NCBI GenBank assembly: GCA_046292385.1 | Contig: JBKBRF010000017.1 | Location: 37,727 to 101,726 of the forward strand | Origin: Armatimonadota bacterium | Lineage (GTDB): Bacteria > Armatimonadota > SYMT01 | Length of the DNA: 64,000 nucleotides | Direction of reading: 5' to 3' | In this document: piece after piece, positions 1,316 through 4,142 of the stretch | Position numbering within the stretch: the stretch's first letter is position 1 | How the letters are laid out: each line of letters begins with the position of its first letter | Notes under the pieces: generated by a model | The model's input: the letters and a program-made list of their open reading frames with translations, nothing else | The model's database searches: none | Told to the model about the DNA's origin: nothing | Program-made: the position numbers and the translations under genes

Positions 1316-1516
1316 ATGAGTGACTCGGCACCCCCCAAGAAACGGACGATGACGGCGGTCACCTATCCGAACCGCCTGCTGCACTACGACGACGACGAGG
1401 GAATGGCGCTGCTGCGCGAGATCGCGCGCCGGCACGGGCTCTCCCTCGCGGCGGCGCTGCGGATGCTCGTGAGAGAGGCCGCGGAGCGCCGCGGGATACG
1501 GAAGAAAACGGAATAG
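1316..1516 (+). CDS. Small ribbon-helix-helix (CopG-like) DNA-binding protein
   Basis: 66 aa; short strand then DDEGMALLREIARRHGLSLAAALRMLVREA, an RHH-like helix-G-S-helix pattern; start chosen from promoter spacing (1349 is the alternative). Confidence 0.65.
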   Translation: MSDSAPPKKRTMTAVTYPNRLLHYDDDEGMALLREIARRHGLSLAAALRMLVREAAERRGIRKKTE

Positions 1517-1552
1517 GAGCCTATCCCTAGCGAGATCGGCTCTAGACTTTCG

Positions 1553-1622
1553 GCGCGGGCCGAAGTGCCTGGGTTCTCGTCTGCTAAACGAACCACCCCC
1601 AGGCGCACGTGCTTGCCCGCGC
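1553..1622 (+). ncRNA. Y RNA-like unit A1 (short stem-loop, Ro60-binding helix)
   Basis: GCGCGGG-C-CGAAGUGCCUGGG...CCCAGGCGCAC-GUG-CUUG-CCCGCGC: the ends pair with a bulged C, as in the Ro60-binding helix; lies upstream of rsr. Confidence 0.8.
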
Positions 1623-1629
1623 ATCCTTT

Positions 1630-1751
1630 CCAGACGTAGCTCAACGGCAGAGCATCAGGTAAACCCTTCGGCGGTGACTTGCCCGGAGACGGGCCGGATG
1701 TTGAAGGTTAACGGCCCTTGAGGGGTGCAGGTTCGAATCCTGCCGTCTGGT
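1630..1751 (+). ncRNA. tRNA-shaped, circularly permuted Y RNA unit B1
   Basis: Acceptor CCAGACG/CGTCTGG; D arm GCTC-AACGGCA-GAGC; stem TCAGG/CTTGA; T arm GCAGG-TTCGAAT-CCTGC; the anticodon loop is replaced by 57 nt containing CUUG-CCCG-GAGA-CGGG-C-CGGA; no encoded CCA. Confidence 0.8.
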
Positions 1752-1753
1752 GT

Positions 1754-1856
1754 GAGATGGGCCGCTGCGAATCGGTTATCGGAGTTCAAGCCTTCCCGTC
1801 CCGACCTGTCGGGACGAGCCCACCGGGGGCACCCGATCGCGCTGCTTGCCTGTCTC
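1754..1856 (+). ncRNA. YrlA-topology Y RNA unit C1
   Basis: GAGAUGGG-C-CG...CUUG-CCUGUCUC terminal helix enclosing a T-arm-like GGAG-UUCAAGC-CUUC, a closed acceptor-like stem CGUCCCGA/UCGGGACG and a D-arm-like GCCC-ACCGG-GGGC. Confidence 0.72.
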
Positions 1857-1862
1857 GCTTTG

Positions 1863-1930
1863 GAAGCGGGCCGGAGTGCCTGGGTTATCCTGTCACGATG
1901 AACCCCAGGCGCATGCAGCTTGCCTGCTTC
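1863..1930 (+). ncRNA. Y RNA-like unit A2
   Basis: GAAGCGGG-C-CGGAGUGCCUGGGUUAUC...CCCAGGCGC-AUGCAG-CUUG-CCUGCUUC; paralog of A1 and A3. Confidence 0.8.
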
Positions 1931-1963
1931 ACTCCTGGGGCTCTCCACGGAGCGGCCCCGGTT

Positions 1964-2086
1964 TCGGACGTAGCTCAGAGGTAGAGCACCAGGAAACCCC
2001 TTCGCTGCTCACTTGCCCGGAGACGGGCCGAAAGCTGAAGGTTACCTATACCCTGGCGGCCGCGGGTTCGAGTCCCGCCGTCCGGA
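1964..2086 (+). ncRNA. tRNA-shaped, circularly permuted Y RNA unit B2
   Basis: Acceptor TCGGACG/CGTCCGG; D arm GCTC-AGAGGTA-GAGC; stem CCAGG/CCTGG; T arm GCGGG-TTCGAGT-CCCGC; same CUUG-CCCG-GAGA-CGGG-C-CGA insert as B1, with compensatory changes relative to B1. Confidence 0.8.
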
Positions 2087-2114
2087 GTGTTCGCTCTCCT
2101 GGGAGCGGACTTTA

Positions 2115-2207
2115 GAGATGGGCCGCTGCGGCTCGCTTATCGGCACACAGGTGGGCTCGAGACCCACCACCCTTCGGGGTTGGCGAGCCGCGTCACTTGT
2201 CCATCTC
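2115..2207 (+). ncRNA. Y RNA unit C2 (reduced tRNA-like domain)
   Basis: GAGAUGGG-C-CGCUGCGGCUCGC-UUAUC...GCGAGCCGCG-UCA-CUUG-UCCAUCUC; internal T-arm-like GGUGGG-CUCGAGA-CCCACC and ACCC-UUCG-GGGU hairpin. Confidence 0.72.
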
Positions 2208-2376
2208 AGGTTAGAACCGACCCCGTGGGCAAAACGGGCTGCGCCTGGCTGTGAGGTGCGGATTTGTCGTCGCGGCGGAACGTCCGATATTCGTCCATAT
2301 CGACCGTCCCGCCGCTCCTAATCTCCGCCCCTCTCGCTCAGGCTCGCCGTACCTTTGCCTACGCGGACCGGTTCCT
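2208..2376 (+). other. About 170-nt imperfect rod-like hairpin inside the Y RNA array
   Basis: Nested pairings GAACCG/CGGTTC, CGTGGGCAAA/TTTGCCTACG, GCCTG/CAGGC, GAGG/CCTC, GCGGA/TCCGC, GCGGCGG/CCGCCGC, CGATAT/ATATCG around loop TCGTCC. Confidence 0.65.
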
Positions 2377-2377
2377 G

Positions 2378-2445
2378 GAAGCGGGCCGGAGTGCCTGGGT
2401 TATCTTAGGGAGATAACACCCAGGCGCGCGGAGCTTGCCCGCTTC
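2378..2445 (+). ncRNA. Y RNA-like unit A3
   Basis: GAAGCGGG-C-CGGAGUGCCUGGGUUAUC...CCCAGGCGC-GCGGAG-CUUG-CCCGCUUC; first 27 nt identical to A2. Confidence 0.8.
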
Positions 2446-2507
2446 ACCTGTCGGGGTGCGGGGGACAACGGGGTCTCCCGCACCCTCCGGCCGAGGAGGG
2501 CCGTGCC

Positions 2508-4142
2508 ATGACCCAGTACCTGAAGAACGTTTTTTCCGCGCGTCAGACGCCGCAGTCGGAGCCGATCCCCGGCTCCGGGCAGGTGCCGAACAGCGCGGGC
2601 GGGTTCGCCTGGCAGGTCGACGATTGGGCCCGCCTCGATCGCTTCCTGATCCTCGGCAGCGAGGGTGGGTCGTACTACGCCTCCGAGCGGAAGCTGACGC
2701 TGGAGAACGCGGACGCCGTGGTCCGCTGCCTGGAGGCGGACGGCGAGCGGCTGGTCCGCCGGGTGGTCGAGATCAGCGAGTCCGGCCGGGCGCCGAAGAA
2801 CGACCCGGCGATCTTCGCCCTGGCGCTGGCGTGCTCCTTCGGCGACGAGCGGGCGCGCGCGGCGGCGTTCGCGGCGGTGCCGCGGGTCTGCCGGATCGGG
2901 ACGCACCTGTTCCACTTCGCGGAGTTCGTAAACGGGATGCGCGGCTGGGGACGCGGGCTGCGGCGCGCCGTGGCGGCCTGGTACCAGGAGAAGCCGGTGG
3001 GGGCGCTTGCGCTGCAGGCGGTGAAGTACCAGCAGCGGGACCGGTGGAGCCACCGGGACCTGCTCCGGCTGGCGCACCCGGTGCCGGCGGACGAGGACCG
3101 CACCGCCCTCTACCGCTGGGTGACCCGCGGGTGGGAGCCGGAGCGGGCGGACCGGTTCGGCCGCGAGGGCGAGCTGGCGCTGGTCGGCGGCTTCGAGGCG
3201 GTGAAGGCGGCCGCCACGGCGGCGGAAGTGGCGGAGTGCATCCGCACCTACCGGCTGCCGCGGGAGGCGGTCCCGACGCAGTGGCTGACCGACCGCGAGG
3301 TGTGGCGGGCGCTGCTGGAGGAGATGCCGATGACCGCGCTGATCCGGAACCTGGCGACGCTGACCCGCGTGGGGCTGGTGACGCCCGGCTCCGTGGGGAC
3401 CCGGAAGGTGGTGGAGCAGCTCGGCGACCGGGAGCGGCTCCGGAAGGCGCGCGTGCACCCGATCCAGGTGCTCTCCGCGCTGAAGACCTACGCCTCCGGC
3501 AAGGGCGTGCGCTCCGACCAGAGCTGGGCGCCGGTGCCGCAGGTGGTCGACGCGCTCGACGCGGCGTTCTACGCGGCGTTCCGGAACGTGGAGCCGACCG
3601 GCAAGCGGTGGCTGCTGGCGCTCGACGTCTCCGGCTCGATGGAGTGCGGAGTGATCGCCGGGTGCCCGGGGCTGACGCCGCGGGTCGCATCCGCCGCCAT
3701 GGCGCTGGTCACGGCGGCGGTGGAGAAGCAGTACACGGCGGTAGCGTTCGCCTCCGAGGGGACCTTCGGGTGCCGGAGCGGGAGCGGGCTGCGGCCCCTG
3801 GCGCTCTCCTCGCGACAGCGCCTGGACGACGTGGTGAAGCTGACGCAGGCGCTGCCGTTCGGCGGCACCGACTGCGCGCTGCCGATGCTCTACGCGCTGG
3901 AGCGGAGGCTCGAGGTCGACTGCTTCGTGGTCTACACCGACTCGGAGACGTGGGCCGGAAGCGTCCACCCGGCGCAGGCGCTGCGGCAGTACCGGGAGTG
4001 GATGGGGATCCCGGCCCGGCTGATCGTGGTCGGCATGGTCTCCAACGGGTTTAGCATCGCGGACCCGAACGACCCCGGCATGCTTGACGTGGTCGGCTTC
4101 GACACCGCCACGCCGCAGCTGATGACGGACTTCGCCCGCTGA
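2508..4142 (+). CDS. rsr: Ro60 ribonucleoprotein (TROVE + vWA domains), Ro sixty-related protein
   Basis: QVPNSAGGF, RLDRFLILGSEGGSYYA, KYQQRDRWSHRDLLRLAHP, MPMTALIRNL, MIDAS motif DVSGSM, GGTDC, YTDSET, DVVGFD; GAGGAGG RBS. Confidence 0.97.
   Translation: MTQYLKNVFSARQTPQSEPIPGSGQVPNSAGGFAWQVDDWARLDRFLILGSEGGSYYASERKLTLENADAVVRCLEADGERLVRRVVEISESGRAPKNDPAIFALALACSFGDERARAAAFAAVPRVCRIGTHLFHFAEFVNGMRGWGRGLRRAVAAWYQEKPVGALALQAVKYQQRDRWSHRDLLRLAHPVPADEDRTALYRWVTRGWEPERADRFGREGELALVGGFEAVKAAATAAEVAECIRTYRLPREAVPTQWLTDREVWRALLEEMPMTALIRNLATLTRVGLVTPGSVGTRKVVEQLGDRERLRKARVHPIQVLSALKTYASGKGVRSDQSWAPVPQVVDALDAAFYAAFRNVEPTGKRWLLALDVSGSMECGVIAGCPGLTPRVASAAMALVTAAVEKQYTAVAFASEGTFGCRSGSGLRPLALSSRQRLDDVVKLTQALPFGGTDCALPMLYALERRLEVDCFVVYTDSETWAGSVHPAQALRQYREWMGIPARLIVVGMVSNGFSIADPNDPGMLDVVGFDTATPQLMTDFAR

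Follow-up and report, generated by a model that had tools for sequence, protein, structure and literature searches.

The stretch analyzed here (the window) comprises 64,000 nucleotides (nt) from an Armatimonadota bacterium (GTDB lineage Bacteria; Armatimonadota; SYMT01; assembly GCA_046292385.1, contig JBKBRF010000017.1, positions 37,727 to 101,726, forward strand), and our subject is an array of small RNA units that directly precedes rsr, the gene for an orthologue of Ro60. The gene lies at 2508–4142 on the forward strand and encodes 544 amino acids assigned by profile search (TROVE, PF05731, E 5.4e-47; vWA_Ro60, PF25045, E 1.3e-63). Compared by bit score with three solved structures in the PDB, the protein scores 460.7 bits against RO60 (9nen), 454.1 against Xenopus laevis Ro60 (1yvp), and 451.4 against Deinococcus radiodurans Rsr (2nvo), so that on these three comparisons (454–461 vs. 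451) it resembles vertebrate Ro60 no less than the Rsr best known from bacteria. Seven units in the order A-B-C-A-B-C-A lie on the rsr strand within 960 nt upstream of the gene, spaced 1–5 nt apart or split by short hairpins. The three type A units are very probably hairpin-type bacterial Y RNA genes in an array that runs in the direction of rsr and ends 62 nt before it.

Unit A1 (1551–1624) carries GGGCCG at 1557–1562, the variant hexamer GUUCUC at 1573–1578, and an apical hairpin with the 7-nt loop CUGCUAA (minimum free energy, MFE, −36.6). A2 (1862–1931) has GGGCCG at 1868–1873, GUUAUC at 1884–1889, an upper stem that pairs 1876–1884 with 1904–1912, and a 3′ strand reading CUUGCC. The corresponding elements of A3 (2377–2446; MFE −40.8) stand at 2383–2388 (GGGCCG) and 2399–2404 (GUUAUC). 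All three folds are stronger than those of shuffled sequence, with z scores of −3.1 (A1), −3.4 (A2), and −5.0 (A3). The larger C units include C1 (1753–1857; GGGCCG 1759–1764, GUUAUC 1775–1780; z −3.1), which has a multi-hairpin apical domain, and C2 (2114–2208; GGGCCG 2120–2125, CUUAUC 2136–2141; z −3.0).

The two B units are tRNA-like and share one architecture: against the Rfam tRNA model, B1 (1630–1751; GUUAAC 1707–1712) scores 49.6 bits with an insert of 56 nt, and B2 (1964–2086; GGGCCG 2025–2030, GUUACC 2041–2046) scores 50.2 bits with an insert of 58 nt. Both possess D and T arms in tRNA order, an open acceptor stem, and no encoded CCA; a Ro60-type stem closed by a GAGA tetraloop—CUUGCCCG-GAGA-CGGGCCG in B1—stands in place of the anticodon loop. 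ARAGORN called no tRNA at either unit. Rfam tRNA matches with 30–75-nt inserts also occur upstream of rsr in related loci L002–L004, L006, L012, L014, L021, L023–L025, and L027, and the Chondromyces row of the seed alignment of Chen et al. 2014 (PMC4201824) resembles the B1/B2-type layout.

Every one of the seven units contains UUAUC, or a variant with one or two base differences, in a hexamer that starts exactly 10 nt after GGGCCG. A2 and A3 both contain GGGCCGGAGUGCCUGGGUUAUC, as a preliminary description of this DNA had read them; the identical 22-mer (GGGCCGGAGTGCCTGGGTTATC) lies at 1868–1889 in A2 and 2383–2404 in A3. That description had also placed UUAUC in C1 and C2 and related variants in B1, B2, and A1 at the same position, as found here. 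Its proposal that the type A units are bacterial Y RNAs bearing a metazoan motif gains support from the analyses below; the motif is not confined to type A and occurs in all unit types. Genome-wide, GGGCCG-N10-GTTAYC has six matches in 7.04 Mb, four of them inside the 900-nt array, and the reversed-pattern control has none; motif plus spacing in the array exceeds chance. The two matches outside the array (contig positions C59:7039–7060 and C2:117087–117108) both lie inside open reading frames (ORFs), one of them a Tat-type signal peptide, and were taken as chance.

Conservation was assessed in rsr loci gathered solely through similarity of the encoded protein. Named genome records supplied 16 of them; another 10, all full-length, came from 41 relative genomes, of which 12, counting the window's own genome, carry rsr. 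Together with the window this gives 27 loci. The named records include Armatimonadota, Actinomycetes/Solirubrobacterales/Gaiellaceae, Caldilineaceae, Candidatus Entotheonella, and a Pseudomonadota metagenome-assembled genome. The 63,135 nt that lie upstream of rsr, read on its strand, contain 70 copies of the signature GGGCCG-N7-14-GTTAYC, spread over 23 of the 27 loci, and 266,505 nt of control sequence (the opposite strand plus the remaining sequence) contain none, bearing out the expectation that UUAUC would be conserved in homologous bacterial units. Spacing is nearly fixed: the spacer measures 10 nt in 59 copies, and the others have 11 nt (6 copies), 12 nt (3), or 9 nt (2). With GUU held fixed and the last three bases left free, 83 sites read UUAUC (56), UUACC (14), UUCUC (4), UUAAC (3), UUAUU (2), or others (4). 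A looser census placed TTATC within 24 nt of GGGCCG at 64 of 127 upstream sites and at 1 of 238 control sites.

A relaxed pattern delimited 89 units in arrays of 1 to 8—39 tRNA-like, 36 hairpin-type, and 14 other—and UUAUC predominates in every class. Because the same element at the same 10-nt distance recurs in several phyla and in every architecture, the motif appears tied to Ro60, the sole component common to all these systems. A TROVE (PF05731) search of 251 Actinomycetota genomes returned five genomes at E ≤ 1e-15; the new loci L032 and L033 carry the motif, and the upstream sequences of L035 and L036 are too short to judge it; no conclusion here draws on L036. The variant UUACC clusters by locus across differing architectures (four of four units in L011, three of four in L021; 370 of 20,000 shuffles at least as clustered), a pattern compatible with a partner encoded in the same genome. 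The UUCUC sub-type recurs in A1 (1573–1600), at L022:1267–1300, in L026 (reverse strand, unit 3820–3891), and at L011:2384–2410. In A1, L022, and L026—a sub-type within the window's family and phylum—a small hairpin comes after UUCUC, its 7-nt loop being of the CUGYUAA type; L011 has the same UUCUC.

The A units share a fold as well as a motif. A structural screen for GGGCCG followed by 3′ YUUGNCY, with the ends paired in the MFE fold, supplied 18 short hairpin units from 15 loci for an A-type alignment. Each predicted A unit has at its base a docking-helix terminal stem, whose 5′ strand GGGCCG includes a bulged C and whose 3′ strand reads CUUGCC. Above it come an asymmetric internal loop, a 9-bp upper stem with GGG/CCC as its closing pairs, the GUUAUC junction 10 nt after GGGCCG, and a small apical hairpin with a 7-nt loop; the apical part spans ~20 nt. 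The 5′ strand GGGCCG(A/G)AG with its bulged C has the form of a Ro60-binding stem, and the lower helix is metazoan in type: GGGC pairs with GCCC, the next C is bulged, and the 3′ strand continues with UUG. All 18 units keep GGGCCG, the motif's GUU, and 3′ UUG-C unchanged, and across the two specified helices 13 of 18 stem pairs show compensatory changes. In the lower helix, five of nine pairs show such changes and 93% of cells are paired; over both helices 91.7% of cells are paired, compared with 31–44% when the partners are slid by 1–3 columns, and none of 500 shuffles reached the observed value. The ends of the A-unit RNAs, and hence their size of 68–70 nt, are as predicted from this fold.

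Taken jointly, linkage to rsr, conservation of the docking site, and covariation put the assignment as Y RNAs on a firm footing, as far as is possible short of biochemistry. A1–A3 lie 62–960 nt upstream of rsr on the same strand, inside the range of up to about 4 kb on that strand taken from Chen et al. 2014. Pairing of the motif itself is variable: its mean predicted pairing probability over the 18 units is 0.92 for the G, 0.40–0.47 for UUA, and 0.62–0.65 for UC, and individual units range from fully paired (A2 and A3) to fully open. A conserved sequence whose predicted pairing is not conserved fits base recognition or a defined non-helical geometry, such as the kink of YrlA, better than a plain helix.

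We then compared the units with covariance models of known Y RNAs. The nematode stem-bulge RNA (sbRNA) model RF01656 (ceN72-3_ceN74-2; gathering cut-off 38 bits) covers A2 and A3 over their whole length, with scores of 32.5 and 32.1 bits (E 1.6e-4 and 2.1e-4 in a 1.1-kb search), and in the whole 7-Mb genome these two units are its sole matches at E ≤ 10 (E 2.4e-4 and 3.1e-4). In ~101 kb of related loci the same model gave 16 further matches at E ≤ 1 in 12 loci, all on the rsr strand and no more than 800 nt upstream of rsr. Among the 41 relative genomes it gave six matches at E ≤ 0.01, spread over five genomes and all immediately before rsr; two pass the cut-off (39.4 and 38.2 bits). At the same threshold it matched nothing in the 29 genomes without an rsr match or in 14 control genomes. 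Similarity to this model thus exceeds background. In two other phyla its best whole-genome matches fall in the rsr array, and the sole match elsewhere is weak (18.6 bits). One above-cut-off unit, in L022, reads UUCUC, which means that more than the motif contributes to the score. The model consensus runs GGUCCG, 10 nt ending in UGG, then GUUAUC. sbRNAs are recognized by UUAUC at the 5′ end of the loop after a G-C-clamped upper stem (PMC4450293); A2 and A3 have this arrangement, their UGGG-UUAUC aligning to the consensus UGGGUUAUC.

The vertebrate Y_RNA model RF00019 had no match at E ≤ 10, either in window positions 1450–2550 or in the whole genome. Of the bacterial models, RF01053 (cut-off 80 bits) had no match at E ≤ 10 in window positions 1450–2550 and RF02553 none on the seven units; the tRNA model had none on A1–A3 at that threshold. 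Vertebrate Y RNAs are RNA polymerase III (Pol III) transcripts ending in an oligo-U tail to which La binds. The sequences that follow A2 (ACUCCUGG) and A3 (ACCUGUCGG) contain no U-run, and thus no La-type tail.

What the preliminary description says of the animal counterparts agrees with the literature. The 31-nt 5′ fragment of human Y4 in the Methods of PMC7012775 starts with the letters given there and has the layout GGUCCG-N10-GUUAUC. According to PMC4450293 and PMC4726728, sbRNAs and vertebrate Y RNAs alike conserve UUAUC where the loop begins on its 5′ side, and sbRNAs need it for activity in cell-free DNA replication. On the bacterial side, the motif is already implicit in print as the YUAY of YrlA. 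Chen et al. 2014 describe YrlA RNAs as tRNA mimics in which a conserved YUAY starts the V loop. Ten of the 11 rows in their seed alignment (supplementary text 2) are aligned at the motif position: four read GGTTATC (three cyanobacteria and Streptosporangium) and three GGTTACC (Mycobacterium smegmatis, Gordonia, and phage ET08), and the M. smegmatis YrlA among the latter is Rsr-bound. The Rfam consensus of the Deinococcus Y RNA (RF01053), GGgCCgaAGuGGuCaCGGUUaC, has GGUUaC at the motif position. In the searchable literature, which leaves the reviews PMC10870794 and PMC6542706 outside, no paper equates the bacterial motif with animal UUAUC, and the UUAUC papers on Y RNA or Ro60 found there do not concern bacteria. 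The notable point here, at the level of sequence, is the layout GGNCCG-N10-GUUAUC common to bacterial Y RNAs of several phyla, the sbRNA consensus, and human Y4.

A further-reaching interpretation, plausible to us though distinctly short of probable, is that GGNCCG-N10-GUUAUC represents an ancient two-part signature of the Ro60 particle common to bacteria, nematodes, and vertebrates, with UUAUC as a second determinant of the Ro60–Y RNA complex. Since the same layout appears in human Y4 and in the sbRNA consensus, GUUAUC can be read as part of the partnership between Ro60 and Y RNA instead of an animal-specific signal for DNA replication. Shared motif and spacing alone are compatible with common descent, with co-transfer, or with convergence on Ro60, and do not decide among them.

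Several observations weigh against our interpretation of the A units as a whole, the assignment as Y RNAs included. A2 and A3 score under the RF01656 cut-off of 38, and A1 has no match to that model at E ≤ 10; to these are added the silence of RF00019 and, on A1–A3, of RF01053 and RF02553. The loci were reached through Rsr proteins 51–70% identical to the window's own, and several are close kin, so their counts are not independent events. Four of the 27 loci lack the exact signature: it is absent from L007 (Pirellulales); L025 (reverse strand; position 1375 of the reverse complement) has the animal-type GGUCCG with GUUAUC after 9 nt (GGUCCG-N9-GUUAUC); L027 has the variant GUUCUC inside a tRNA-like unit; and L028 offers just 298 nt of upstream sequence for scoring. 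The clustering of UUACC is also explicable by duplication within a locus. Nor is the A of UUAUC obligatory, given the UUCUC of A1 and three other units and an A>T change at 1887 in the A2 copy of a soil-metagenome relative (one contig, depth 5), which yields UUUUC. Three proteobacterial YrlA rows of the Chen 2014 alignment keep just CTAC/CUAC, and vertebrate UUAUC is tied to DNA replication in vitro, not to Ro60 (PMC4726728). Of 22 listed sequencing runs one is an RNA library (5% of sampled words), from a rhizosphere sample; one 268-nt contig from it covers 2119–2385 (C2 plus spacer) with eight differing letters (97% identity), weak evidence of transcription because DNA carry-over is possible. 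The library also gave two short tRNA-like pieces; it gave no cover of A1–A3, which in a single library shows neither expression nor silence.

The strongest alternative is that the likeness to animal RNAs beyond the docking helix is convergent or incidental. GUUAYC would then be a relic or working part of a tRNA-like ancestry—the start of the YrlA "V" arm—with a role in the tRNA-like fold or for enzymes that process or modify tRNA, and the A units would simply have inherited it. We consider this unlikely, although it has real footing: YUAY stands at the V-loop start of the tRNA-like domain in Chen et al. 2014, 39 of the 89 motif-bearing units are tRNA-like, RF00019 is silent, and the review of Kowalski and Krude (PMC4726728) holds bacterial Y RNAs to be non-homologous with the vertebrate clades. 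In addition, a small hairpin with an anticodon-loop-like 7-nt loop (YU-NNN-R-N) starts at the last motif bases in 32 of 89 units, compared with 284 of 5400 random positions (5.3%). The motif is nevertheless kept in the 36 hairpin-type units (24 of them with UUAUC), which lack D and T arms altogether, and what stays constant is its distance from the site where Ro60 docks (10 nt for 59 of the 70 copies), not from the T arm. The same sequence and spacing also occur in human Y4 and the sbRNA consensus, neither of which has a tRNA-like domain, and a model built from nematode RNAs alone selects nothing but rsr-adjoining sites in the 41 genomes. The NNN triplet of the anticodon-like loop differs between units.

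A second alternative concerns where the units act. A3, and perhaps other units, could be mainly cis-acting, a docking site in the rsr 5′ leader through which Rsr feeds back on the translation or stability of its own mRNA, instead of a free trans-acting Y RNA. The position of A3 invites this view: its end lies 62 nt before the rsr ATG, a further G+C-rich hairpin (2451–2490) and a GAGGAG Shine-Dalgarno sequence stand between, and a hairpin-type unit starts 91–150 nt before rsr in at least 10 related loci. A promoter scan, moreover, placed sigma-70-like sites at 1259–1309 alone, with none before A3 or between A3 and rsr. Yet A1 and A2 have the same architecture 580–960 nt upstream, with other units between them and rsr, and according to Chen et al. 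2014 the rsr-upstream Y RNAs of M. smegmatis and D. radiodurans arise by cleavage of one shared precursor and build up in free form, bound to Rsr. A mainly cis-acting role is thus quite improbable in our judgment; cis and trans roles are not mutually exclusive, and A3 may also have a function as part of the rsr leader. Between C2 and A3 stands a hairpin that resembles a terminator and has a weak T tail (2239–2270), and either it or the 2451–2490 hairpin could make A3–rsr a separate or regulated unit. Short G+C-rich hairpins also directly follow A2 (1935–1960) and B2 (2090–2110).

Scarcely credible, finally, is a view of the A units as duplicates in decay or as structural spacers (such as hairpins for processing, set among the tRNA-like units) without a function of their own: the near-identical 5′ halves of A2 and A3 do suggest recent duplication, and A1–A3 are uncovered in the RNA library, but A-type units recur in 15 loci of different phyla with 13 of 18 pairs compensated and the docking bases invariant, features that decaying copies would not keep.

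Around the array, a 66-amino-acid ORF (1316–1516) lies behind the promoter-like site at 1281–1309 and an imperfect palindrome, TGATATCGTGATGATATCA (1250–1268). It was dropped as a possible array component, having no Pfam family and no tblastn match in any related locus. Farther upstream are a secreted CARDB-domain protein (371–1180) and the C-terminal end of a Sua5/TsaC-type gene (3–281); downstream of rsr, an ABC-2 transporter is encoded on the opposite strand. No RtcB, RtcA, or RtcR gene is adjacent to the rsr locus.

For the array itself we propose a working arrangement. By analogy with Xenopus Ro60 (solved) and Deinococcus Rsr (mapped), Rsr would bind the lower stem of the A units through the GGGCCG strand, and GUUAUC, roughly a helical turn farther up, would be a second element, specific in sequence. 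There it could serve as a contact for the Ro60 particle, or it could kink or hinge the RNA and so orient the variable apical module, much as the conserved UA bends YrlA by ~30 degrees in the crystal (Wang et al., bioRxiv 10.1101/312249). We put the chance that GUUAUC is such a second determinant, whether contact or hinge, a little below even. Enzymes that process tRNA might release the units from one polycistronic precursor, in line with reports on Deinococcus and M. smegmatis; their tight packing around tRNA-like members suggests a single precursor cut at those members.

If the shared signature is real, Ro60 and Y RNA would have traveled as a pair, whether through common descent or through a joint transfer that linked bacteria and animals, and the need for UUAUC in animal DNA replication assays would reflect later re-use of an element linked to Ro60. 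Animal UUAUC is not known to have a function beyond that cell-free requirement (PMC4726728, PMC4450293), and its occurrence in bacteria brings in a link to Ro60. The 69-nt A units would then be the smallest natural scaffold for examining the idea of a second determinant, a question approachable with a 69-nt RNA and a soluble bacterial protein. As a practical matter, GGGCCG-N10-GUUAYC could be used to annotate Y RNA arrays that RF02553 and RF01053 miss.

Among known systems, YrlA (RF02553) and Yrn1 (RF01053) resemble the A units in their Rsr docking motif (a GNCGAA-type 5′ strand) and in a conserved element at the same place (YUAY and GGUUaC, respectively), whereas the A units lack the D and T arms of YrlA. 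Relative to Salmonella YrlA, B1 and B2 are related by circular permutation, being in normal tRNA order with the acceptor stem open. Vertebrate Y RNAs, represented by human Y4, share with the A units a docking helix with a bulged C on both strands, a G-C-closed upper stem, and GUUAUC 10 nt after the docking hexamer; they differ in that RF00019 is silent on the A units, A2 and A3 carry no La-type tail, and the A-unit loop is much smaller. Nematode sbRNAs share with A2 and A3 the order of parts, a near-identical 5′ half (GGNCCGGAG), a 9-bp upper stem ending in UGGG, UUAUC, and 3′ CUUG-CC. Their apical domain is ~70 nt in the model, compared with ~20 nt here, and the A units are bacterial, form an operon-like array, and carry no Pol III signals. 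sbRNAs are also tied to DNA replication (PMC4450293), a role with no known counterpart for the A units.

The closest relatives by description are the hairpin-type bacterial Y RNAs—D. radiodurans Yrn2, Salmonella Typhimurium YrlB, and M. smegmatis YrlB—which, like the A units, lie upstream of rsr on the same strand beside a tRNA-like Y RNA and are probably cut from a polycistronic precursor (Chen et al. 2014). This class, whose members "eluded bioinformatic discovery," has no sequence model against which the A units could be scored, and Chen et al. 2014 report for it neither a UUAUC element nor a fixed spacing. The A units are themselves very probably further examples of this known class; where Chen et al. 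2014 describe one long hairpin Y RNA per species, here there are three copies within a seven-unit array.

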